Shown: piece by piece, positions 2,718-37,392 of the stretch
Layout: every line of letters begins with the position of its first letter
Position numbering within the stretch: the first letter of the stretch is position 1
Made by a program: the position numbers and the translations under genes
Notes under the pieces: generated by a model
What the model saw: only the letters and a program-made list of their open reading frames with translations
Told to the model about the DNA's origin: nothing
Databases searched by the model: none
DNA from: an uncultured delta proteobacterium
GTDB lineage: Bacteria > Desulfobacterota > Binatia > UBA9968
Reading direction: 5' to 3'
Length of the DNA: 64,000 nt
Assembly: GCA_963771465.1 (NCBI GenBank)
Contig: CAVYTU010000017.1
Span: 128,001 to 192,000 of the forward strand

Positions 2718-3740
2718 GTGATCAATCAGCGCACTTACGCAGCGGCAGAGTTGGCCGCGCTGGCACTACTTTTTGCTGCGAGTTTTTGGGACCAGATTCA
2801 CGTCGGTGTCGATGGCTGGGTGATCGTCGCAACGTGGTTGTTTGTTTTGATCTTGCCGATTTCAGCGTTGCTCAGAAAACACGACTGGAAAGAATCTGGA
2901 TTCTGTCTCGATAACTTTGTTTCTGGTCTGCCTTTCACCGGCATCATCGTTGTCGTATCTGTTGCGGTGTTACTCGACATCGCAGCGCTTGTTGGAGTAT
3001 CTATTCAGACACCCACCGCGGCCAGCACCTTTCGATCGATCTCCTGGGGCTTGGTGCAGGAAGCGCTGCTGCTGGAATATTTTTTCAACGCTGGCGCGCT
3101 TTGCTGCAGAATACATGGCTTGCGGCTGCCGCCAACAGCTTGGTTTTCGGATTGTTTCATGCCCCGGAAATTGCGCTTGTCGCCGTCGCGTCGTTCGGCA
3201 GCTTTTTTTTCAATTGCCTGTTTCTCCGCAATCCGAATGTCTTCCTGATCGGCATCGCCCATGGTGTGTTTTCGATCGTGGCGCTGCCGCTCATGATTGG
3301 AACCGGTGTGATGGCGACGGGACGAATCGGGTCGGCGGAGTTGGCGCCGCTAGCGCAACGGGTCGCGAGCGAGTGGTGCGACGGCGATCGCCTCGGCATT
3401 TGTTCTCGTGTACTCTTTGAAGATCAGCTCCAATCACCTTTTGCCAAAGTGATCGAGCGGGTTTTACGGGGCAAACGCGAAACAGCGGCGATTCAAGACG
3501 CTTTGTCGCGCTATTTCGCCAGCGACCGGCGCGTTCTTCTGCCTGATCACGGAGCGTGAAGTGTCGCGTTACCGAACGGCGACGAGCGATCAAAGTATGA
3601 TGGTGTTGCAAGATTGGTATATTTGGCAGCGTTGGCGCAACCGACCTCATATGCGGAAGGGGGACTTGCTGATCGGTTTGTTTCGCGATCGCGGGTTGCT
3701 GCTGTCCAACAAGGCCGCGCCGAAAAAAATTAAGACTTAA
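2718..3740 (+). pseudogene. CPBP (Abi/CAAX) family intramembrane protease-like protein with C-terminal soluble domain; two apparent frameshifts
   Basis: ORFs 2718-3248 and 3101-3559 plus a third frame ending TAA 3740 join into one membrane protein with QE...FGLFH...IAHG motifs; shifts near 3088 and 3535. Confidence 0.55.
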
Positions 3741-5563: not shown

Positions 5564-6535
5564 CTACTTAGCTTTGATTTCGCGATAGACTTCTCGCACC
5601 AAGGTGAAATCTGCGACCCGCGACGACGGCACGGTTTGTTTGCTGTTCGAGACTTTCAAGCTTTCATCGATGCCTGCTTGCAGTGCTTGGTCCGAAGCCA
5701 TACCGTTCTCCGACCAAGTTTTTATCGTCGAGTCGAAAGCCTTCTCGGCGACGTCTCGTTCGAGTTTCCACCTCGACATGATCAGGGCGATCGAATCATT
5801 GCGTTGCGCGCGCGCATGCGCCATGCCTCTGAACGCCACCGCGATCATTTTCTTGATCTGATCGGGGCGCTCCTGCAGCCAGCGCTCGGAGACGCCGAAG
5901 CCGCCGTTAATGCTCTCCAAGTATCCCCCATGAAGGCCAGCTTCCTAGCCCAACGTTCGCGTGATATCGACCGGGCGTTAACGTGGTCGCGTCCACGAGC
6001 CGCTCGAGCCGAGGCGGTCGGGCGTGTTGCCGATGACCCGCAGCGTTATTTCCTTTTCGACGTCGATGCCGGCGTCTTTGAGCAGGCGGCGGGATAAGAA
6101 AGATTCTCCAGAGGTGAGCGTCGCCACACCGAGGACTTTGCCTTTAAGTTCTTTGATCGAGCGAATGTCCGGCTTGGACATGAGCGAAAAGAGCGGCCGA
6201 TCGTTGTAGACCATGACTAGCTTCACCGGCAAACCGCGCACCGCGGCATTGAGCGTAGTGCCGGCGAAGATTACGTACTGTATGTCGCCGGATATCAGCG
6301 CCGTGACGGCAATTGTCGGTGGGATATTGATCAACTCAACATCCAACCCGGCTTGTTCGAAAAAGCGATTCTCTTTGGCGACGATCAGCGGAAAGGGGAT
6401 AAGGCCGCCGACCGAGTAGCCGATGCGCACGCGCTCGAGGTCGCGAGTAGCGGCGTCGGCGAGGGCCATAGCGCAGAGGATGACTAGGATTGCGATGACT
6501 GATCGGACCGATCCTATCTTGAGAAAGCGTTTCAT
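5564..6535 (-). pseudogene. ABC substrate-binding protein (NMT1/SsuA-like), frameshifted
   Basis: Signal peptide MKRFLK..., GLDVEL, IKELKGK; split into ORFs 5978-6643 and 5564-5920. Confidence 0.75.
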
Positions 6536-6536
6536 C

Positions 6537-7250
6537 TTACGGCCACCGGTTGCGGTTTTGTGGGCGCTTGGCCCAGTAGTCTTCGAACGCTCTTTGTCCG
6601 GCGCGCTCGTAGACGCGGCGGTGCGTCGCTTGATCAGCTTCATGGGCGATCACGCGTTCGGAGTATTGCAGATGCAGCACGCGACCCTCGGCAGCGGCTT
6701 TTTCCGCGGCAATGATATCTTCCAAGAACTGGCGCAGCTCGGTGGGATTGGCCATGTTGCTGCGGAAGATTAGCCGGCCATCTTTGTGGATGACGAACAG
6801 CGCATTGGGCCATAAACCATAAGCACGATGAATGCGGCCGTCGAGAGGGTCGACGAGGATCGGTAAACGCACATCTTCTAACCGCTGCAAGTCGCGTGCG
6901 TAGGCGAGCTTCTGTTCGAAGCTCGTGTGCGCGCTATAATTCTCCGCCGGATGGGATTCCCGGGTATAGAGGAGAAAGAAAGCAAATGCTTTATCGGCGA
7001 AGTCATCTTGCAGCCGATTGAGCGCTGGGACTTCAAATGCGCACATCGGGCTGGTGACAGCGCCGGTCATCATGACAACATGGCGCTGACCGCGAAAATC
7101 GCCGAGCCGGACGAGTTTGCCATTCAGCGTTGTGGCTTCGAATTCCGGCGCCGGCACGCCAACTTTCGCAGCCATCGTCTCGCCGGGATTGTTCAAGCTT
7201 GCGCCAACGGCGAACTCTTCTGAATTATAAGCGCGTTCCTGCTCGTTCAT
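6537..7250 (-). CDS. Thioredoxin-fold iodothyronine deiodinase-like protein
   Basis: APEFEATTLNG, TGAVTSPMC, YTRESHP, ILVDPLDG...AYGLWPN match the deiodinase-like layout. Confidence 0.7.
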   Translation of the reverse strand: MNEQERAYNSEEFAVGASLNNPGETMAAKVGVPAPEFEATTLNGKLVRLGDFRGQRHVVMMTGAVTSPMCAFEVPALNRLQDDFADKAFAFFLLYTRESHPAENYSAHTSFEQKLAYARDLQRLEDVRLPILVDPLDGRIHRAYGLWPNALFVIHKDGRLIFRSNMANPTELRQFLEDIIAAEKAAAEGRVLHLQYSERVIAHEADQATHRRVYERAGQRAFEDYWAKRPQNRNRWP

Positions 7251-7258
7251 TGTCGTTA

Positions 7259-8276
7259 TTAGCGGCTTTGCTCGCGATAAACGCCGATGGCTTCATGCAG
7301 CGGCCGGTTCGGTGGTGGAGAAAAGCAGCGCGGGTTTGCTCTTGGAATTCTTATGCCGGTGCCAGCTCCAGTTGGGCACGACAAAAAAATCGCCGGCGTC
7401 CCATTCCAACTTTTGGCCTTCGACTTCGCTAACGCCGCTGCCTTCGACCGCGTAGTAGAGCTGGCTCGACGTGTGGCGGTGCTCGGCGGTTTCTTTATTA
7501 CCATCAAGCATTTGTATCCAGCACGAAAACGTCGGAAACGTGGCGCCGCCAGTCACCGGATTGCGATACTCCAAACATTTGCCGTCGAAAGGGCTTTCAC
7601 TTTCGGCGAGCATTTCCTCGAGAGCTCGGCGCGTGTCGGACCCTTTGTAGACGAGTGATTTTAACGCCTGGCCCGGTGGCGCGAGCAGCCCAGGGTTCCG
7701 CTTGGTCGTGTCAACCGGGCTGTTGTAGAGCCGGACATCTTCGCCGGGATGCGGTTCCTGAAACATGGTGCGCAGCATGCGCATCAAGCCGGAGTCGAGG
7801 CCGTCGATCCAGATCGCGTCGCGCTCCGATTCGTTGATTTGATTATGCCAACCCCAACTCGGCTGGATCACCAGATCGCCGCGTTCCATGACGCATTTCT
7901 CGCCGTTGGTGATGATGTAGACTTTCTCGCCGCCGTCGATGACGAAGCGCATGGCGGCATTGGTGTGTCGATGGGAATAGACGGCTTCGCCGGCTTTGAC
8001 CAGCTGCACGGCCAGATTCAACGTGTGGCTGGTGCTCTCGTTCATATCGGGATGCACCAGGCTAATCGCCCGGCGCGCGCCTTTGTAGTTGGTCGTGATA
8101 AGTTCGCCGGCGGCTTCGAGACCGGCGCGAATCTTCGCCCATTTCCAAAGGATCGGTTTTCCGAAGGGCGCCGGCTCGCGGCGGATCGATTCCTCGCGCA
8201 CCCACAGCCCGCGCAGGTGGTCTTTCGCTAGCTCGGCGTCGAGGTTTTTTAGGTCGTTGGTTTGCGTTGGGGTCAC
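7259..8276 (-). CDS. Bicupin, gentisate 1,2-dioxygenase-like (probable frameshift near the C-terminus)
   Basis: HRHTNAAMRF, PSWGWHNQ, YRNPVTGG, HRHTSS, VPNWSWHRH; the C-terminus PLHEAIGVYRE lies in another frame ending 7259. Confidence 0.8.
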
Positions 8277-9681: not shown

Positions 9682-11280
9682 TCAGGTAGCGGATAATTCT
9701 CTCTGCTTGGCTTTTTCGCGTGCCCGCTTCAGCGCCTCGCGCAGGTTTTGCTGGTGGCCAAACCAGAACCTCGAGAAAGTTGCGCTCATGCGCCCGTCGC
9801 TAAACTTCATCAATAGATAACCCAGAAGAAATCCGCTCAAGATCCAAACTAGACATGTCGGGTTGGCCAAAAGCTTGTCGCGTATCGAAGCAAGAGCCGA
9901 AAGAGGCGAGGTAGAAAGCGTGCCAATGAGCACGACTAAATTTTTTACAGTCGGCCACAAATTGAGGCCCGAAGGCGCCTCCGGCGAGCCAGCCACGACT
10001 ATCAACGTCCCAATGCATGACAGGAGGTAGATGTAGTAGGAGAATCGGCCGACGGTAATTATATTGCGGACCTGATCCAGTAGAGACTGCCCGCCGGTAT
10101 GAGCAGATTTCAAAACCAACTCAGCCGCGCTTGCTCTCACCAATGCGGCAGCGTCTTTTTCTGGATCTCTTGTGGGCGTAATCACAACGGTTGCGTTGGG
10201 CGGCAAGTTGCCGGGGCAATAATCCTCAGTCCCGTGTGCGATTCGCTCCAGGACCGTCAAATGAATTTTAGGTGGAACCCCGTTGTCTCGGCATAGCAGG
10301 ACGATATCGCGAGGTTTCCAGCGATAAAATACTCCGAGTCCGGCGCGCGGGTCGTAGAGCTTGTCGTCGACGTTCCCATGCTCATTGTAGTAATCGCGAT
10401 CTTCCGCAATGAAACGGAGGCCGGCCGATTGCGCCTTATCCATCAACCAGTCGAGGGCGACCAGTGACATGCCTTGTTTGGGATAACCCCCGCCCACATT
10501 CGAGTGTGCTCCGGCGAACCATACCTGCTCGATCTTCTGGGATTCGTTTTGACTGGGCATATCTTGTTTCCACAACAGAGGGACAAAGGAGTGACGTTCC
10601 TCGTCTACGGCGAGTGCATGGTACGCATGTTCGACGTGCTCGCTCAGTGTCTGATTCGGAAACTTAAAACGATAGAACACGCCGTTGATGATATCGCTGA
10701 TGTGGAATGGCATGCCGACGGCATCGACCGTATCCCACACACCGATGAAGTGGATCTTTGGCTGTTCGTTGTTGCAAAATTTCGCCTTGAAGTCGGCGGT
10801 CGCATCGGTCTTAGGATCGCCCAAAAACAGCCGCATGAGCGCGGTCCGGTAACAACTCCGATATGCCTTATAGGCGGCCTTGACGGTTGCTTCGAATGCG
10901 CGCGCTGTGATTTGTGTTTTAGCGTCGATGATCCCGCATCTGACGATAAGTCCCGCGAGTGTCCGGACGGTGAAAGCGCCGCGACTGAACCCAAATAAAA
11001 AAATCCTGTCACCAGTGTCGTAGATGCGGCATAGCTCCTTATAAAGCTGCCTGATGTTTCGGCCGAGGCCCCAGCCCGTCATGCCAGCGAATATTTTCAG
11101 TGGCTTGAAATCTTCCGTGCCGACCCCATCGTCGTAGATAGAAACCTGGGGGTCCAGCTTTGGATCGAAGCGGTGACCGTTGAGGTCAACGGACTCGAAG
11201 AGTTTGAAAACGTTCGTGCCTCGCCCCTTCACCGTCGTGTTTCCTGTTCCGTCGGAGCAAATAACAATGTTTTTTGCCAT
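9682..11280 (-). CDS. DUF2235 alpha/beta hydrolase (Tle1-like phospholipase domain) with C-terminal TM segments
   Basis: CSDGTGN, GFSRGA, GVWDTV, HALAVDE, WFAGAHSNVGGGY. Confidence 0.85.
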   Translation of the reverse strand: MAKNIVICSDGTGNTTVKGRGTNVFKLFESVDLNGHRFDPKLDPQVSIYDDGVGTEDFKPLKIFAGMTGWGLGRNIRQLYKELCRIYDTGDRIFLFGFSRGAFTVRTLAGLIVRCGIIDAKTQITARAFEATVKAAYKAYRSCYRTALMRLFLGDPKTDATADFKAKFCNNEQPKIHFIGVWDTVDAVGMPFHISDIINGVFYRFKFPNQTLSEHVEHAYHALAVDEERHSFVPLLWKQDMPSQNESQKIEQVWFAGAHSNVGGGYPKQGMSLVALDWLMDKAQSAGLRFIAEDRDYYNEHGNVDDKLYDPRAGLGVFYRWKPRDIVLLCRDNGVPPKIHLTVLERIAHGTEDYCPGNLPPNATVVITPTRDPEKDAAALVRASAAELVLKSAHTGGQSLLDQVRNIITVGRFSYYIYLLSCIGTLIVVAGSPEAPSGLNLWPTVKNLVVLIGTLSTSPLSALASIRDKLLANPTCLVWILSGFLLGYLLMKFSDGRMSATFSRFWFGHQQNLREALKRAREKAKQRELSAT

Positions 11281-23753: not shown

Positions 23754-23817
23754 CATCGGCAATTACGAATAACAATCGATCTATTTTTTAGTGAATAATT
23801 CATCGGAGGTAATTTTT

Positions 23818-25911
23818 TTGTCCGATCCAAGAGTCGGTTTACTTTTCGATCCCAAATCCGTCGCCATCATCGGCGCCTCGGCGGATCTCGCCAAGGCGTC
23901 CGGTTTGCCGCTACGTAACATCGTCAACTCTAAATTTACCGGTAAGATTTATCCGGTCAATCCGCGCGCTAAAGAAATCAGCGGGCTTACTTGTTATCCC
24001 ACGGTCACCGACCTACCCGAGCCGCCTGACGTGGCGATTTTCATGATCGACGCCAGGCTCACGGCGCCGATCATGGAAGAGTGCGGCAAAAAAGGCGTCA
24101 AGACTGCCATCATCGGCTCTGCCGGCTTCAGCGAAGACGGCGCCGAAGGGCAAGCCCGTCAAGACGAGGTAAGTGAAATCGCCAAGCGCTACGATGTTCG
24201 GGTTTGCGGACCCAACTGTCACGGCACATTCAACGTCTATAAAAATATTCCCTGCGGTTACGATCATTCTTATGCTTTGCCGATCAAGCCGGGACCGGTG
24301 GCGATTGCGTCACATAGCGGCGCTTTGCTCGGTGTCATCGGCCATCGCGCCGTGCAAGCCAACCAGGGCTTCAGTTACATGGTCAGCAACGGCAATGAGA
24401 TGGATTTGGATCTGTGCGACTTCACCGAGTTCTTCCTCGCAGACGACAACACTAAAGTCGTCGCCGTGCTCATGGAAAGTCTAAAAAATGGGCCGCGATT
24501 CTTACAACTCGCCGAGCGCGCCCACGACATGGGTAAAACCATCGTCGTGCTCAAAGTCGGCAAGTCGGAGCGCGGCGCGATCACGACCATGGCGCACACC
24601 GCGCGCATGGCCGGCTCGGGAGAAGTCTACGAAGCGGCGTTTCGTCAGTACGGCGTGATTTCCACCGACACGGTGGAGGCTTTTCTCGGTACGGCGCAAT
24701 TTGCCGCGCACCAGCCGGTGCCGCGCGGCGGGCGGCTGTTCGTCATGACTTCGAGCGGCGCCGGCGCGAGTCTTATGGCCGACAAAGCGAGCGAGTACGG
24801 CATCGAGCTTGCCGATATTTCCGAGGCGGCGAAAGCGCGCGTGCCGCAGCGGCGCTCGGCCATTTTGACCAATCCCTTCGACACCGCCGGCACTTCGCGC
24901 GCTCCGGGATTTCTCGCTGCCGTGTGCGACGCCTTCGCCGAAGACAATGCCAACGATTGTATGCTCATGTTCATGGGGCCGCTCGCCGTCCGCCACGAGT
25001 ACGGCCGACAATTTGCCGCGGCTGCTGAAAAGCACCGCAAGACCGCCGCGGCGATCATCAATCTTTCCGAAACCGACATGCGCGATATCTTTCAGGAGAA
25101 ACATATTCCCGTCTACGACGCGGCAACCGATGCTTGTTTCCGGATGCTGCGCGGTTATATCGACTACGGGCAGTTTCTTGAGCGGCGCAAAACGGCGCCG
25201 CGGCGTGATTCAGATTCGCAACGCCGCGCGAGCCAGTGTAGAGGCGATTTTGCATGCGCATCGCGGCGCCAAGATGCTGCCGGCGGGTGGCAACCGTCGA
25301 GTTGTTGAACGCTTATGGATTTGAATGCGCGAGATCGATTCTCGTGAAATCGATCCTTGAAGGGAAAACCGCCGCCACCGCAAAAATTGGCTATCCGGTG
25401 ATTCTCAAAGGGATGGTGCCAAACGTTGCGCATCGCAGCGATGCCGGGTTGGTGAGCGGCAAAATTTCGGACGCCACCGAGCTTGACAAAGAATTTGCCG
25501 CAGCTAGCTGCCAAAGCAAATGCTCTCACCGCAGGATCGACGCCGATCAGCGTCGAGAAGTTTGTCGCGCATGACCTCGAAGTTATTCTCGGAGTGAAAT
25601 ACGACCCAACTTTTGGCCCGGTGATTCTCTGCGGCCTGGGCGGTATTTTTACTGAAGTTTTGCAAGATTTCGCGCTCCGGCTAGCGCCGCTGACAAAAGG
25701 CGACGCCGAGGAAATGCTCGCGGCGCTAAAAGCGTATCCGGTTTTGAAAAAATCCCGGAAGAATGTCGACTTGCTCGTCGACGCATTGCTGCGCCTATCG
25801 GAACTCGCCGTGACGTTAAACGGCAAGATTCAAGCCGTGGACATCAATCCCATCGGCCTCGGTGGCGAATCGGCTCAAGCGATCGTATTGGATGCTAAGG
25901 TGCACTTGTAG
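23818..25911 (+). pseudogene. ADP-forming acyl-CoA synthetase (acetate-CoA ligase family), three apparent frameshifts
   Basis: SVAIIGAS, YPVNP, GPNCHG, VSNGNE, AHTARMAG, NPFD; ATP-grasp part (GYPVILK, DPTFGPV, DINP) in shifted frames near 25220, 25285 and 25500. Confidence 0.85.
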
Positions 25912-29009: not shown

Positions 29010-29688
29010 CGTACGACAAGGTTGGGAATCGGAAATCCAAAGCCGACAACGCCGGAACGGCGGACTACACCTACGATGTTTTAAACCGCCTCACCCAAGC
29101 GGTTAACCCGCTGCCGACCAATCCGCTGGAGACGTTCACTACGATCTGGTCGGCAACAGAACCAACTTCAATCAGAACGGCGCGTCGATCTTCAACATAG
29201 CGAACCAATTGTTGGAAGACGCCAACTTTACTTCCCAATACGACAACAACGGTAATATGACGATGAAGACGGCGAAGGTTGGCGCAGCCGTCACGAACTT
29301 TGAGCACGACGCCGAGAACAAGCTGGTTCGCGTCGTGTCGCCAAGTAACACCGCGAACTATAAGTACGACGGTTTAGGACGAAGAGTCGAAAAGCAAGTG
29401 ATTGCGGGCACGACGACGGTCACCAAATACGTCTACGACAACGAAGACATCCTGCTCGAACTGAATGGCTCCAATCAAATCGTCGCCCGTTACACCCATG
29501 GCCCCGGCAAGAATGATCAATGGGTACAAGACATTATCAAGAAAGAAGCACCGGTATATTTGGCATCTCCAACTCAGCTGTGGGATGCTGTAAATAATAG
29601 ACCGACAGTTCTCGCACGAGAAATTCAACAACTAGAGTCCGCCGGTTATAAGCAAATCGGCGATTATCCGGTTCCGCCAGGATGGTAG
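29010..29688 (+). pseudogene. RHS/YD-repeat remnant fused to a short toxin-like C-terminal tip
   Basis: TYDKVGNR, YTYDVLNRL, YDLVGNR, YDNNGNM, YKYDGLGRR, ARYTHGPG, then an abrupt 59-aa tail; frameshift near 29138. Confidence 0.8.
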
Positions 29689-30909: not shown

Positions 30910-31104
30910 CGTGAGCTCAGATATGTACGCTTTTGCAACGACCAACGGGCGACAGTACCCCAACTGCTTCGACAGGGTCAAGAATAGTTGTAACGCCGAA
31001 TATTCGAGTCGAGATATGGTAAGGTAGAGGTGAGTCCGTGGTCAATTGACAAGGTGGCTGTATCCGACTACATCCCGACGAGTCAGCGCTGCTACACTAA
31101 TACG

Positions 31105-32103
31105 ATGCATGGAGCCGTGAGCAAGATCCTCCGAACGGTCATCGGGGTCGGTATTCTCATTTTGTCGAGTTCGGTCGATCTCGGAGCGCAAAGCCGTAAG
31201 GTGCGCGTGGCGATGCCCGGCTACACGATTGCGGGATTGTCGTTTCTGACGGCGAAGCTTAACGGCTACTACGCCGGGGAAGGTTTGGATGTCGAGCTGA
31301 TCGCGATGCGCGCGCCGACGGCGAATTTGGCGGTGCTGAGTGGTAGCGTGGAGTTTTCCACCGTGCCCTTGGTCGGACTCAACACGGCGCTGCGCGGCGG
31401 CGCGTTGAAAGTAATCATGGTTCACTTCGACAAGCCGCAGCATGTGCTGTTCGTCAAAAAAGAGCTGCAAAATTTGCAACTATTGCGTGGGAAGAAGTTG
31501 GCGGTGTCCGGCCCCGGCGTGATCGACGACCTTCTCCTGCGGGAAGTTCTGGCGGCCAACGGCGTCGACGCCAACCGCGAAGTGACGATCCTAACACTGG
31601 GCTCGGCCGATACGCGCGTGACCAGCTTGATTACCGGCACGGTGGACGGCGCGATGATCATTGCGCCATTCACGTTCACGGCGAAGGACAATGGTTTCCG
31701 AGAACTGGTGGTGTTCAAGGATCAAGGCGTTCTCTTGGCCAGCGGTGGCATTGTGGCGCGAGACGAGATGCTCAGATCCGATCCGTTGCTGGTGGAGCGT
31801 TTCGTGCGCGCGTCGATGATGGGATTCATCCATTCGCGCGACAATCGAAATGGTGCGATCAGAGTTCTCACCAAGAGTCTCAAGATCGACGAATCCATCG
31901 CCGCGAAGGTCTACGATTCATCGCGGCCGACGATGACCGCCGATGGCACGCTGTCCGACGATAGCCAAAAAAAGATGGCCGCCTTCGTGGCCAAGACTGC
32001 GGGTCTCAAAGATATCGCGCCGGTGGAAAGGGTTTTCGATTTTTCATTCGTCCGCAAATCCCACGCGGCGCTGCACGCGAAAGGTTGGCAGCCCGGATCG
32101 TAA
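31105..32103 (+). CDS. ABC substrate-binding protein (NMT1/SsuA-like)
   Basis: GYYAGEGLDVEL, LRGKKLAVS, GTVDGA. Confidence 0.85.
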   Translation: MHGAVSKILRTVIGVGILILSSSVDLGAQSRKVRVAMPGYTIAGLSFLTAKLNGYYAGEGLDVELIAMRAPTANLAVLSGSVEFSTVPLVGLNTALRGGALKVIMVHFDKPQHVLFVKKELQNLQLLRGKKLAVSGPGVIDDLLLREVLAANGVDANREVTILTLGSADTRVTSLITGTVDGAMIIAPFTFTAKDNGFRELVVFKDQGVLLASGGIVARDEMLRSDPLLVERFVRASMMGFIHSRDNRNGAIRVLTKSLKIDESIAAKVYDSSRPTMTADGTLSDDSQKKMAAFVAKTAGLKDIAPVERVFDFSFVRKSHAALHAKGWQPGS

Positions 32104-32113
32104 CAGCTGTGAA

Positions 32114-32143
32114 TTGACATTCGTAAAGGACTGGCACTAGAGT
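32114..32143 (+). promoter_or_regulatory. Putative sigma70 promoter for the grdE/grdB-like pair
   Basis: TTGACA-N18-TAGAGT, 18 bp before ATG 32162. Confidence 0.45.
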
Positions 32144-32161: not shown

Positions 32162-33436
32162 ATGCAACTGTCACTGGCGATTCATCCCGTTACATCGATT
32201 CAATTCGGCGCGCGCACGGGTTTGGTCGGAACGACGCTTTCGATCCAACAAGACGAGTTGCGTCGGCTCGTGCTTGAAGAGAGTTCATTCGCAGCCGTCG
32301 ACTTCGAGCTCGCTCGACCGGGGGATAGTCTACGGGCGGGGCCGATATTTGACATCGTCGAGCCGCGCGCTAAGGCGCCGGGCGGAAGTCCCGATTGGCC
32401 CGGCATTCTCGGCGAGCCGCATACTGCCGGCAGCGGTACGACCCATGTCCTTGAGGGCGCCGCAGTGGCCGTCGTGCGCGAAGACTCACCCGGCGAGTCG
32501 CGCGGCGCTACTGGCTACGTCTTGGAAATGAGCGGCGCACCGGCGGCGAGCTCGCACTACGCGACGCTCTGTCACTTGATCATGGTGCCCCATAGCAAAG
32601 CGGATGTGCCGGCGCATGCACGCCAAAGAGCTTATCGGCTGGCGCAATTGAAAATTGCCGTGCACCTGGCGCGCGCCGCGCTCAATGAAATTCCCGCGCG
32701 CACGCTCAGTCTTGATACGGCGATCGCTGCCGACCGCGTCGGACTGCCGCGGATCGCTTACGTTGGCCAAATATTTTCCCGCCAAAGAAAACCGGTCCAG
32801 GATGAGTCGATTCTTTACGGCGCCGATACCGACGGCATGCTGCCGACGGTGCTCCACCCCAACGAGTGGTTAGACGGCGCGCTGCTGCCGTCGTACCATT
32901 GTTCGCTGGGCGGCGCGGAAACCTATTTTTATCAAAACCATCCGGTCATCACGACACTGTATCGGCGCCATCAGGCGGGCGAATTGAACTTTGCCGGCTC
33001 CGTGGCGACCATCGCGTCGGCGGATAATTCCGACCGCGATCGCAACACGCACTTGGCGGCCAATCTAGTCAAATGGGCGCTTGGCGCCGACGCAGCGGTG
33101 CTGACTAAATTCGGCGGTGGCGTGCCGCACACGGACCTTGCAGAAACTGCACGCTTGCTGGAAATTATGGGAGTAAAAACCGCGGTGCAGGTCACCGACC
33201 TGGCGCGCGATCATAGGATCGAGTCGGCGCTGCTGTTTAATTTCCCCGAAGTGAACGCGGTGGTCTGTGTCGGCGGTAACGACACGAAGTGGAATCTGCC
33301 GCAAGTCGAGCGCGTCATCGCCGCCGACAGCGGCATGGCGGAATTGCTCGCCGGTCCGTTTGAAATCGACTCGCTCAACGTCATCGGTGTGGCCAATCAG
33401 CAGGGCGCGTCGCGGTTGCGGTCGATGGTTTACTAA
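32162..33436 (+). CDS. Glycine/sarcosine/betaine reductase component B proprotein subunit (GrdE/GrdG/GrdI-like)
   Basis: DIVEPRAK, GSGTTHVLEG, LPRIAYV, PTVLHPNEWLDGA, TYFYQNHP, VVCVGG. Confidence 0.85.
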   Translation: MQLSLAIHPVTSIQFGARTGLVGTTLSIQQDELRRLVLEESSFAAVDFELARPGDSLRAGPIFDIVEPRAKAPGGSPDWPGILGEPHTAGSGTTHVLEGAAVAVVREDSPGESRGATGYVLEMSGAPAASSHYATLCHLIMVPHSKADVPAHARQRAYRLAQLKIAVHLARAALNEIPARTLSLDTAIAADRVGLPRIAYVGQIFSRQRKPVQDESILYGADTDGMLPTVLHPNEWLDGALLPSYHCSLGGAETYFYQNHPVITTLYRRHQAGELNFAGSVATIASADNSDRDRNTHLAANLVKWALGADAAVLTKFGGGVPHTDLAETARLLEIMGVKTAVQVTDLARDHRIESALLFNFPEVNAVVCVGGNDTKWNLPQVERVIAADSGMAELLAGPFEIDSLNVIGVANQQGASRLRSMVY

Positions 33437-33499: not shown

Positions 33500-33511
33500 A
33501 AGGAGTTCAGC

Positions 33512-34792
33512 ATGCGCATCGTTCATTATCTCAATCAGTTTTTTGCCGGACTCGGCGGGGAAGAACATGCTGGCACGCCGCTCGAAGTACATGACGGCGC
33601 CATCGGGCCGGGGAAATTGTTTCAGCAATTGCTTGGCGGCGACGCTCAGGTTGTCACGACGCTCGTCTGCGGTGATAACTATGCGGTGGAGAATCAGAAG
33701 ACGGTGGTTGCCGACGCGTTGAATAAAATTCGTGACGCGCAGGCTGAGCTGTTTGTCGCCGGGCCATGCTTTTTGGCTGGCCGCTATGGCATGGCCGCTG
33801 GCGCGCTGTGCGCCGCGGTGCAGGCAAAGCTTGGGATTCCTGTGGTTACCGGCATGGCGCAGGAAAATCCTGGTGTCGATCTCTACCGCGAGACTCTTTA
33901 TATCATCGACTCGGGCGACAACGCGGCCAAGATGCGCGATGTGCTCGTGCGCATGGCGGCGTTGGCGTTGAAACTGGCGCGCAAGGAAGCGATCGGCCGG
34001 CCCAAAGATGAGGGTTATATCGCGCGCGGCTTGATTCGCGATCAGTTGGTTACAGCGACAGCGGGGGAACGGCTGGTCGATATGGTTTTGGCGAAAGTGA
34101 CAGGCGAGCCATTCGAATCCGAAATGATGGCGACGGCGTTTGCGCCAATCCCGATGCCGCCGGGGGTAAAAGATCTCCGCAAAGCGAGAGTGATGCTGAT
34201 TACGGACGGCGGCTTGGTGCCGAAGGGCAACCCGGACAAAATTCAGGGCTCGGCGGCGACGCGATGGGGGTCGTATAGCATCAAAGACTGCACAGATCTC
34301 GATGGCTCGGATTACGAAATTTCGCACGGCGGCTACGACGCGCAGTTCGTTCGGCAAGATCCCGACCGGCTGGTGCCGTTGGACGTGATGCGCGACCTGG
34401 AGAAAGAAGGCGCCATCGGCGAGTTGCACGATGAATTTCTCTCGACTTCCGGTTTGGCCAATCCGCTCTCCAATACCCGGCGCATGGGGCGCGAGATGGC
34501 CGAGAAAGCCAAACGGCTGGGCATCGACGCGATCATACTTACGTCTACGTGAGGCACGAGTACTCGCAGCGGCGCTGCGATTACAACCGAACTGGAAAAA
34601 GCCGGCATCCCCACCGTGCAAATCACCGCAGCGTTGCCGGTCGCGAAAATGGTCGGCGCCAACCGAATCGTACTCGGTAACGGTATCGTCCACGTCGTCG
34701 GCGACGCCAAAATGCCGGCGGAGAAGGAAAAACAGGTGCGCCGCCGGCTTATCGAGCAGGCGTTGGCTACACTGCGCGGCGATGGCAATTAA
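33512..34792 (+). CDS. Glycine/betaine/sarcosine reductase family selenoprotein B (GrdB-like), Sec at TGA 34550-34552
   Basis: MRIVHYLNQFFAG, CGDNY, GPCFLAGRYG, GGLVPKGNPD, HGGYD, DPDRLVPLD, LTST-TGA-GTSTRSGA...ELEKAGIP...VGANRIV; the frame stays open 79 codons past TGA to TAA 34792 (426 aa). Confidence 0.92.
34560..34584 (+). promoter_or_regulatory. Bacterial SECIS-like stem-loop
   Basis: GTA-C-TCGCAGC-GGC-GCTGCGA-T-TAC; the 17-nt upper hairpin starts 11 nt after UGA and has G residues in the loop. Confidence 0.8.
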
Positions 34793-35131: not shown

Positions 35132-36118
35132 ATGAACCTAGCCTGGCTTGACGAATATCTCCTGCCGATAACCATGATCGTGTTGGTGTTCGCGCTGTTG
35201 TGGTTAGCGATTACCCGTGCGAAGGAGGCCAAGCGGGAAGCTACCCAGGATGCCGAAACGTCGACGCCATCGGCAGCGCAGTCACAGTTGTCGGATATTC
35301 GTCAGGGCGTCGAGTTGGTCGCCGACGCCGAGCCCGCAACCGTGCCATCTCGACGCTATCCCCTGATCCGCCAGCTGACCTTCGGCTTTGGCGCCGTCGC
35401 GATTGTTTTTGGTTTCGCTACCTGCGTGATCGTGTTTGGTTCTATTTCTCGGGTCTACGAAAAGGAACTCACCAGCCGCACCCAGATCATTACTATCGGC
35501 TTGAGTGATCTCGTGACGCGCCGACTGGCGACCAAGTCGGTACAGGGGCTTGCCAACGACGTGGAAAAATATGCGGCGATGAAAGCGGTGGCCTATGTTT
35601 ACGTGGAAAACGCCAAGGGCGCGATCATAGCTAACGCGCCGGAAGAATTGCCAAGATATCTAATTCGAGACTTTCCAAGGTCAGCGGAGCGGGCGCTCGG
35701 CGGCGTCAATATGCGCTATCGCGGTGCGGACGTATACGAAGTTGCCAATCGAATCGGCGGCGTCAATACGGGCTTCGTTCACTTGGGGATTTGGCGCGAC
35801 GCGATCGCCGCGGAGGCGCGCATGGCGCTCTTGCCGATGGTGGCAGGGATCGTCGTGCTGATCCTCGGCATCACCGCCATGTTTATCGTCATCGCGCGGC
35901 GCTTGAACCGTCCCCTGCTCGACCTGGTCGTTCAAGCCGATCGTATCAGCCGCGGCGATTTCACCGTCACCCTGAGCTCAAAGCGTAGCGACGAGATCGG
36001 CGACATCGCGCGCTCCATCGAGCGGCTGCGGGCTAGCTTGTTCGCGGTCGTGCGCCGGTTGGATCAAGCCAACTCAACCGAACAGACGGATAAACTTCCG
36101 GCTCGTGGCGACCGTTGA
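35132..36118 (+). CDS. Membrane protein with sensor-like domain and terminal HAMP domain, no output domain
   Basis: TM segments; RPLLDLVVQADRISRGDF...DEIGDIARSIERLR, then stop soon after. Confidence 0.8.
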   Translation: MNLAWLDEYLLPITMIVLVFALLWLAITRAKEAKREATQDAETSTPSAAQSQLSDIRQGVELVADAEPATVPSRRYPLIRQLTFGFGAVAIVFGFATCVIVFGSISRVYEKELTSRTQIITIGLSDLVTRRLATKSVQGLANDVEKYAAMKAVAYVYVENAKGAIIANAPEELPRYLIRDFPRSAERALGGVNMRYRGADVYEVANRIGGVNTGFVHLGIWRDAIAAEARMALLPMVAGIVVLILGITAMFIVIARRLNRPLLDLVVQADRISRGDFTVTLSSKRSDEIGDIARSIERLRASLFAVVRRLDQANSTEQTDKLPARGDR

Positions 36119-36162
36119 AATTAACCCTCGGTTTTGGCAAAGAGTAACCCGGAATCAAACTC

Positions 36163-37392
36163 ATGAAAAAGCGCATTGCCGCAGTATTTCTTGCGATAAC
36201 ACTCACGGGCGCCCTGCTCGGGTGTGTGCTTTATTACGCGGCCAACTATGAGCAGGGAGCGATGACGCTGGCGGAGCTGAGCGCCGGCAGCCCTTCGGCG
36301 CCCGACGCGAATCCAAATCTCGCCTTTCTTTCGCAGCCGATTCAAAAAGTCGGCGCCTGGCTCAGCGAACTAGAAGCCGAAGTGATTATCTATAGCGTGG
36401 TCGGTTTTGTCGCGCTGTTAATTATCCTGCGGCTGCTATTGGCGGTGCTGCGGGCAATCAAAGATGAAATATCGTTTCGTGCCCAGGAGCGTAATAGCTA
36501 TCGATTTGCGGCTATGCCAGCCGATACGTTCACGTCGAGGCAAACACCGTTAATGCGCATACTGCCTAAAGACACCGTCCCCAGCGCTGAAGCCGAGACG
36601 CGAGTCTACGAGGCACGGTTCGCTGACACCATGCGTCATGGCGTAGACGCTTTGTGGTGGTATCTGCGCGAGCATGGGAAAGGCTTGAGCGGCAGGTTGA
36701 TTTTGACCTTTACCGGAGTGGTTACCCTGTTTGGCATAATTACCGCGGCGTTGGTCTACCATACCCTGACGCAATCCCTAACCGGCCACGCGATCCAACG
36801 CGCCAGGATCATTGCCCTGAACGTCAGCGACAGCGCGCCGGCCTATCTGATGAAGCAAGACGCGGATACGCTGCGCGAGCTGCTGCGCAAACAAGTCAGC
36901 AACCCGCCAATGGCGTATGTCCTAGTTGAAAGGCGCTCGGGAGAGATTTTCGCGCACAGCTTCGCCGCGTTGCCCGACGAGGTGCAAAACCAGAGCGCCG
37001 CCAGCGGCGCTGCCATTGCGGCGCAGCGCACCTTGCGTGTCGGTCAAGGCATGGTCTACGAAGTCTCGGTGCCTATCCTCGATGGCCAGCGCGGCGCGGT
37101 GCGCGTCGGTATTTGGCAGGATGATGTCGATACCGCGATCAGCGAAACCATCGCGCCCCTGATCAAGTGGCTGGTACTGATCGTTATCGGCGGCGCTTTG
37201 ACAGCGCTATTCCTGGCGTGGAACATCAGCCGGCCCATCGTCCGATTGGTGCAACTCGCGCGACGCATCAGTCGTGGTGACCTCGATGCGCCGTCGCTCG
37301 GCATGGAGGACAAGACCGAGTTCGGCGAGCTGTCGCGCGCTCTGGAGCGCATGCGCTCGAGCGTCAAAGCCGCTGTGATACGCTTGGGTTGA
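36163..37392 (+). CDS. Membrane protein with sensor-like domain and terminal HAMP domain, no output domain
   Basis: RPIVRLVQLARRISRGDL...EFGELSRALERMRSS then stop; paralog of the upstream gene. Confidence 0.8.
   Translation: MKKRIAAVFLAITLTGALLGCVLYYAANYEQGAMTLAELSAGSPSAPDANPNLAFLSQPIQKVGAWLSELEAEVIIYSVVGFVALLIILRLLLAVLRAIKDEISFRAQERNSYRFAAMPADTFTSRQTPLMRILPKDTVPSAEAETRVYEARFADTMRHGVDALWWYLREHGKGLSGRLILTFTGVVTLFGIITAALVYHTLTQSLTGHAIQRARIIALNVSDSAPAYLMKQDADTLRELLRKQVSNPPMAYVLVERRSGEIFAHSFAALPDEVQNQSAASGAAIAAQRTLRVGQGMVYEVSVPILDGQRGAVRVGIWQDDVDTAISETIAPLIKWLVLIVIGGALTALFLAWNISRPIVRLVQLARRISRGDLDAPSLGMEDKTEFGELSRALERMRSSVKAAVIRLG

Follow-up and report, generated by a model that had tools for sequence, protein, structure and literature searches.

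An in-frame UGA in a GrdB-family gene of Binatia: a probable selenoprotein with serines in place of the CxxC cysteines and a partner subunit lacking processing cysteines

Does the in-frame TGA of a glycine-reductase-like gene in an uncultured member of the Binatia terminate the protein or encode selenocysteine (Sec), and what kind of enzyme would the full-length product be? The gene lies in a 64,000-nucleotide stretch of contig CAVYTU010000017.1 (positions 128,001 to 192,000; hereafter the window). A sequence-only reading of the window had proposed a GrdB-like selenoprotein of 426 residues, read through the TGA with the help of a SECIS hairpin and truncated by standard gene callers. The features discussed below are these:

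31030..32103, + strand: gene for an NMT1/SsuA-like solute-binding protein (PF09084), upstream of the pair on the same strand
32162..33436, + strand: gene for the GrdE/GrdG/GrdI-like partner subunit, 424 aa, without processing cysteines (PF09338; below the GrdG and FarE cut-offs)
33512..34792, + strand: GrdB-family selenoprotein gene (grdB-like), 426 aa with putative Sec347 (TIGR01918, PF07355, structural model)
33767..33769, + strand: codon of the clade-specific Cys86 (GPCF; GPAF in the references), a candidate resolving thiol, 79/79 loci scored
34550..34552, + strand: in-frame UGA, putative Sec codon, within STU-GTSTRSG (UxxSxxS), 80/80 loci
34553..34792, + strand: post-UGA segment of 79 aa, missed by gene callers (predicted secondary structure, pN/pS 0.22)
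34564..34580, + strand: SECIS hairpin, core 34565-34579, loop GGC 34571-34573 (fold, frozen codons, covariation)

The reading frame opens with the ATG at 33512, preceded by AAGGAG at 33500-33505, runs for 346 codons ending in LTST up to the TGA at 34550-34552, and remains open for 79 further codons until the TAA at 34790-34792. The proportion of G and C at third codon positions is 0.71 after the TGA and 0.70 before it. In the AlphaFold model of the read-through product (mean pLDDT 95.3, with Cys modelled in place of U), residue 347 lies between strand 340-344 and helix 348-363, and the post-UGA segment contributes three helices and two strands to the second domain (H348-363, E368-372, H375-380, E385-388, H403-421 in the model). 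TGA is the ordinary stop codon of 17 among 49 window genes picked as clear, which rules out a code-wide reassignment of UGA; recoding is therefore local and context-specific. A scan of the window and of the related loci for other conserved in-frame TGA codons returned, among the 40 largest groups, the grdB-like gene and its shadow frames alone.

The relatives of the gene tell the same story. A scan of GTDB genomes gave 119 of them, of which the best 80 loci, spread over 68 genomes, were analysed and the 39 weaker ones left out; the 80 are labelled as Ca. Binatia (44), Deltaproteobacteria (21) or other (15). All 80 carry TGA at the Sec codon, followed by 76-103 open codons, and none has TAA, TAG or a Cys codon at this site, so an error in a single assembly is ruled out. 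The downstream sequence evolves under purifying selection, with pN/pS of 0.22 over codons 359-422 vs 0.27 over codons 1-346. The read-through proposed by the sequence-only reading is thus borne out, and the lack of downstream conservation in homologues, which that reading had named as the observation that would count against it, is not what we find. Out of 3975 protein homologues, each of the 120 listed aligns only with the initial 81% of the query, its own last residues being xxLTST or xxVTST; gene callers have therefore cut all of them at the UGA codon, in agreement with the earlier claim of a 426-residue GrdB-family selenoprotein shortened by annotation. Damaged copies occur as well: the selenoprotein gene at L075:1064-2329 is interrupted by an additional stop, at codon 255, and the partner gene at L002:8629-9901 has a frameshift near codon 394.

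What directs the recoding? The hairpin that had been noticed 11 nt after the UGA is indeed present at 34564-34580, where 17 nt form seven pairs around a GGC loop; the leading GG of the loop lies 18 nt downstream of the UGA, and the 17-mer has an energy of -9.9 kcal/mol. According to PMC13188914, bacterial SECIS elements are recognized by a loop of 3-9 nt, a stem of 4-16 pairs, a G in the first two loop positions, a distance of 16-37 nt from the UGA and a minimum free energy of at most -7.5 kcal/mol; with its 3-nt loop, 6-7 pairs, leading GG, 18-nt spacing and -9.9 kcal/mol, the window hairpin falls within all of these bounds. Fold energy by itself is weak evidence for a SECIS: the z-score of the 51 nt starting at the UGA is -1.45 and that of 101 nt is -0.30, the value of -3.47 belongs to a 31-nt piece chosen around the hairpin, and 62 of the 1936 TGA triplets in the window are followed by a hairpin of the same geometry.

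The strong evidence comes from synonymous-site conservation and compensatory change. The stem codons CGC, GCT and GCG are fixed in 81/81 sequences and AGC in 80/81, the one exception retaining a G-U pair, while elsewhere in the gene GCT accounts for 271 of 3627 other Ala codons. Six core pairs are intact in 80/80 loci; the outer U-A pair is retained in 53/80, and the conserved element is therefore the 15-nt core at 34565-34579. The reference genes, namely grdF of P. acidaminophilum, grdH of E. gilvus and the Acetoanaerobium and Photobacterium genes (unannotated, but satisfying the published GrdB motif), have the same stem in the same place, and two pairs differ between them and the window clade by compensatory changes. 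The covariation score was reached by 0/500 shuffles, a count that is not a probability given nine related, hand-picked rows. Because the same stem recurs at the same place in the references with two pairs changed, and because the hairpin has the properties of a bSECIS, we conclude that it is a grdB-family (grdB/F/H) SECIS. Its proposed likeness to the E. coli fdhF element stands for the geometry, since in the K-12 sequence a 17-nt upper hairpin likewise begins 11 nt after the UGA and its apical loop starts with GG 18 nt after it, but not for the architecture, which in fdhF includes a 4-nt loop and a bulged U and in the window a 3-nt loop on an unbroken stem of 6-7 pairs. We regard decoding of UGA347 as Sec, via SelB and the in-frame hairpin and yielding 426 aa, as close to certain. 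A second, distant pair of partner and selenoprotein genes at L066:13554-16128, 45% identical to that of the window and bearing UxxSxxC, has a hairpin with an A-U to U-A change, intermediate between the window clade and canonical grdB.

Membership in the selenoprotein B family follows from the profiles (TIGR01918, 464 bits vs a cut-off of 65.45 over residues 2-422 of the read-through product; PF07355, 438 vs 22), from the in-frame UGA with conserved downstream sequence and from the adjacent PF09338 partner. The arrangement also resembles that of GrdB/GrdE (TIGR01917) and GrdF/GrdG (NF040794/NF040793), in which the partner gene precedes the selenoprotein gene, the STU motif occupies the same place and the SECIS has the same position and stem; U347 aligns with the U of the GrdF, GrdH and GrdB references, and identity to the window protein is 45% for P. 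acidaminophilum GrdF and 40% for Enterococcus GrdH. Identity with any of these three enzymes is ruled out by profile cut-offs, by motifs and by the change of UxxCxxC to UxxSxxS. The product scores 429.5 against the GrdB cut-off of 602.2 (TIGR01917), 474.9 against the GrdF cut-off of 800 (NF040794) and 427.4 against the GrdH cut-off of 775 (NF040795). With the motifs taken from PMC9751293 as given there, the GrdB motif is found in 2/4 references, not in the window and in 0/80 loci, and the GrdF motif in the GrdF reference and in 0/80 loci. UxxCxxC is present in 4/4 references, GrdH included, and in 0/80 loci, all 80 of which have UxxSxxS. The term GrdB-like therefore holds at the level of the family and fails at the level of GrdB, GrdF or GrdH, and the supposedly clear GrdB C-terminal sequence turns out to have serine at both cysteines of the motif.

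A quick midpoint-rooted tree of 78 rows (the window, 26 of the 80 loci, one paralogue, 4 references and 46 of 150 distant representatives) places the window and the loci, joined by two of the representatives, on a single branch (SH-aLRT 100) that is separate both from GrdB/GrdF and from GrdH, the latter represented by one reference. The three Atlas clusters that best match the partner are commonest in Binatota.

The partner gene is found directly upstream in 76/80 loci, the remaining four beginning at a contig edge. Both processing cysteines, present in 3/3 GrdE/GrdG references, are absent from 75/75 clade partners, with 0/75 at either column, and these proteins do not have the make-up of GrdE/GrdG pyruvoyl proproteins. 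In this the clade resembles GrdH/GrdI, where the partner also lacks a pyruvoyl-forming site and Sec is the nucleophile, as well as FarE/FarB of Cloacibacillus porcorum, where, as PMC10838667 describes, FarB has lost the CxxC and FarE both processing cysteines. The likeness to FarE/FarB, in which FarB was compared by description only, does not extend to orthology of the partner: the window partner reaches 141 bits on the FarE profile (NF053623; cut-off 675), below both GrdG (206) and GrdI (172), which rules it out as a FarE orthologue. In the window, unlike at FarE/FarB, the pair has neither a radical SAM gene nor an antiporter gene as a neighbour, and the host lineage is described as aerobic. 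GrdH/GrdI differs in turn by its retained UxxCxxC and its separate branch, and by the BCCT transporter and the grdACD-trx cluster, neither of which adjoins the window pair. The absence of the processing cysteines argues that the partner is very probably not cleaved to a pyruvoyl enzyme and that the substrate is not glycine or sarcosine held as a Schiff base. At two positions that are Glu and Asp in the references, the clade partners invariably carry Lys316 and His323, a replacement of the acidic motif that would fit an anionic or non-amine substrate. A promoter-like site at 32114-32143 was not used, being one of 3 found vs 2.5 expected by chance.

The other distinctive residue is Cys86. It is present in 79/79 loci scored, giving GPCF in place of GPAF; the position is Ala in 4/4 references and in 68 of the 73 distant relatives that have a residue there, while Cys96 of the references is missing from the clade. 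Self-alignment of the two domains sets Cys86 opposite U347, at the weak level of 11-14% HHalign probability (E 0.002-0.003), and we treat this placement as a lead to a candidate resolving thiol. Solved structures gave no sequence match to the family, and fold searches returned only generic alpha/beta matches for the whole model (best Z 10.8, rmsd 3.4, 124 aligned) and for the second domain (best Z 9.6, rmsd 3.7, 130 aligned); they offer no support for kinship with two-cysteine racemases.

What could be the reaction of such an enzyme? Sec of protein B is described as attacking the alpha-carbon of the substrate, the pyruvoyl group being required for the activation of amines (PMC13188914, PMC3091704 and PMC10838667). 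We propose that the gene encodes the Sec-bearing half of a protein B of the glycine-reductase type, whose other half would be the GrdE-like subunit encoded upstream. SelB would bind the in-frame hairpin, allowing UGA347 to be read as Sec in a 426-aa chain, and the partner would stay uncleaved, with no pyruvoyl group and hence no Schiff base with glycine or sarcosine. The selenolate of Sec, located where helix 348-363 begins, might then displace a good leaving group (halide or onium) from a 2-substituted acetate, leaving a carboxymethyl-selenoether. By analogy with GrdHI and FarEB, we consider Sec displacement on a 2-substituted acetate reasonably likely. Where grdC and grdA precede the pair, the carboxymethyl group would pass to GrdA and GrdC; in the majority of loci, including the window, the pair would lack these proteins and Sec may be regenerated through Cys86 and general cellular thiols, replacing the lost CxxC. 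The clade's protein B probably does a different job from the usual one of its family, and the chain as a whole, from a Sec-containing protein B without a Schiff base, acting on a non-amine 2-substituted acetate, to recycling by GrdA/GrdC or Cys86, is the reading we lean towards, by a modest degree of confidence. A bolder version is doubtful, namely a free-standing, oxygen-tolerant Binatia selenoenzyme in which Sec347 and Cys86, paired by the two duplicated domains, would replace both UxxCxxC and the GrdA/GrdC relay. Its reaction would be the reductive cleavage of substituted acetates at a carbon-halogen or carbon-onium bond, perhaps also at C-F, as has been proposed for FarEB. If this version were true, the enzyme would be at work in abundant soil, sediment and host-associated bacteria, and a pair that alone cleaves carbon-halogen bonds would be a compact new dehalogenase.

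The flanking genes bear on whether the clade instead retains an ordinary energy-conserving reductase, in which a protein B specific for betaine or some other amine would supply GrdA, GrdC/GrdD and thioredoxin made from genes elsewhere in the genome, with acetyl phosphate as the product. In four loci (L030, L041, L056, L066) the pair is preceded by grdC and then grdA, giving an intact grdC-grdA(U)-grdE-grdB order; both GrdC and GrdA pass the NCBIfam cut-offs, and each grdA has a TGA at CxxU with its own hairpin bearing GG at the loop, which makes it a second selenoprotein gene in the same operon. Separate protein B pairs sharing one A/C system have been described (PMC10838667), the grdGF pair of P. 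acidaminophilum likewise has no grdA, grdC or grdD annotated within 12 kb, 12 of the 68 genomes gave two loci, and GrdI also lacks the processing site. Against this, grdD was found in 0/80 loci and not in the window, even beside grdC-grdA. Matches to grdA or grdC are also absent from the window and from the flanks of the other 76/80 loci, and trxA was found in none of the 80 loci nor in the window, with trxB matching weakly in L041 alone. In 61/80 loci the flank upstream of the partner is 2.5 kb or longer, and in 37/80, three of which have grdA/grdC adjacent, there are at least 9 kb on both sides; absence from the flanks is not absence from the genome.

Tests of genome-wide absence of grdA and grdC lean toward absence and are not decisive. 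Among the 120 GrdC matches listed, 12 group with the Binatia type, vs 120 of 120 listed GrdB matches at 77% identity or above; the other 108 GrdC matches are 61-70% identical, roughly as distant as one would expect of this subclade, and the three Atlas clusters that best match Binatia GrdC are commonest in other phyla. A GrdA homologue search was of little use, since database GrdA entries are short and split at the UGA. The loci with grdCA sit low in a 12-row subclade, of which L043, L045, L048, L053, L062 and L071 keep the DUF255 neighbour with no grdCA in between, and this suggests local loss or relocation of grdCA there. Taken with the GrdH score, the separate position of the clade from GrdH, GrdB and GrdF and the loss of the UxxCxxC that GrdH retains, these counts make an ordinary reductase seem unlikely, if still a serious contender. 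In the Binatia grdC-grdA loci without grdD, GrdC lacks about 30 C-terminal residues relative to the Enterococcus reference; a GrdD-free route in these loci, perhaps to acetyl-CoA, is our guess.

Neighbouring genes vary by subclade, none is conserved across the clade, and they give no clue to the substrate. The NMT1/SsuA-like cluster is beside the pair in only 4/80 loci, and the system does not regularly include this gene. In 34/80 loci (for example L060:7039-8607) the pair has as its neighbour a thioredoxin-like DUF255 gene with CxxC, which shares the strand of the pair in 21 loci and runs divergently in 13; this gene is absent from the window and its subclade. Following the pair in the window, at 35132-37392 (+), are two membrane proteins that have a HAMP domain but no kinase domain, each also seen after the pair in 13/80 loci. 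A block of an amidohydrolase, a 213-aa protein without assignment and a CmcJ/NvfI-family oxidoreductase occurs in 16-18 loci (L001, L004 and L009 among them), upstream and on the opposite strand, within the window's subclade and not in the window itself.

Could the enzyme instead have been turned into a selenium peroxidase or thiol-dependent oxidoreductase, with a Sec347-Cys86 cycle and no cleavage of a C-X bond? Peroxidase activity of GrdB is named in the title of a work cited in PMC3091704, Binatota are described as aerobic in the abstract of PMC8262859, and the thioredoxin-like DUF255 gene lies next to the pair in many loci. Yet the motif reported as protective in PMC6778437 is the very CxxC that the clade has lost; a two-subunit enzyme of 850 residues, whose partner is kept wherever there is room, would be costly beside the window's own peroxiredoxin; and the DUF255 gene is missing from the window's subclade. 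We consider such a repurposing improbable, and prefer displacement on a 2-substituted acetate.

Least tenable is the view that UGA347 does not encode Sec, either because it truly terminates the protein, the gene being truncated or split, or because Cys or some other standard amino acid is inserted there. Some Deltaproteobacteria have tRNAs that insert Cys at UGA, which would favour it, and some distant database relatives have Cys at the Sec site, including P0238 with the same GTSTRSG tail; moreover, of the selABCD genes that the sequence-only reading predicted for the genome there is no sign in the window and the 80 flanks, which contain no tblastn match to E. coli SelA, SelB or SelD and no tRNA found by ARAGORN, and the window has no Rfam match at gathering thresholds. 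This view is nonetheless very improbable, given TGA without TAA, TAG or Cys codons in all 80 loci, frozen synonymous sites in the hairpin, the loss of two strands from the modelled second domain that a stop would entail, and the 17 window genes ending in TGA, which exclude a code-wide reassignment.

A GrdB-family selenoprotein cut at its UGA is textbook material, and NCBI already names some of the relatives as family members. The distinctive point is the anatomy of the clade, for which a literature search, with most subscription journals and the primary GrdB/GrdE biochemistry outside its range, found no description among the papers listed. The known GrdB-family enzymes come from anaerobes that ferment amino acids, and according to a recent review aerobes rarely retain selenoproteins (PMC13188914); the Binatia lineage, described as aerobic, retains one, often in two copies, after shedding cysteines and a cofactor thought necessary. 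In the databases every listed relative is cut at the UGA, and many are labelled glycine or betaine reductase, labels that would wrongly assign a Stickland or trimethylamine-forming metabolism. The UxxCxxC motif has also served as a filter for calling such genes pseudogenes (PMC6778437), and the clade shows that copies without CxxC can be under strong selection.

Several other features of the window deserve mention. Solute-binding protein genes (NMT1, TctC and related) are numerous and lack adjacent permease genes, and there are several amidohydrolases and ring-degradation enzymes. A deiodinase-like redoxin at 6537-7250 (-) has Ser at a motif position that we take to be usually Sec or Cys in such proteins. 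Genes at 5564-6643, 23791-25574, 2718-3420 and 7259-8276 look split or shortened by frameshifts in the ORF list when judged by eye, possibly as assembly errors. A Tle1-like phospholipase domain with a C-terminal hydrophobic stretch is encoded at 9682-11280 (-), and a short RHS/YD-repeat ORF lies at 29209-29688 (+).
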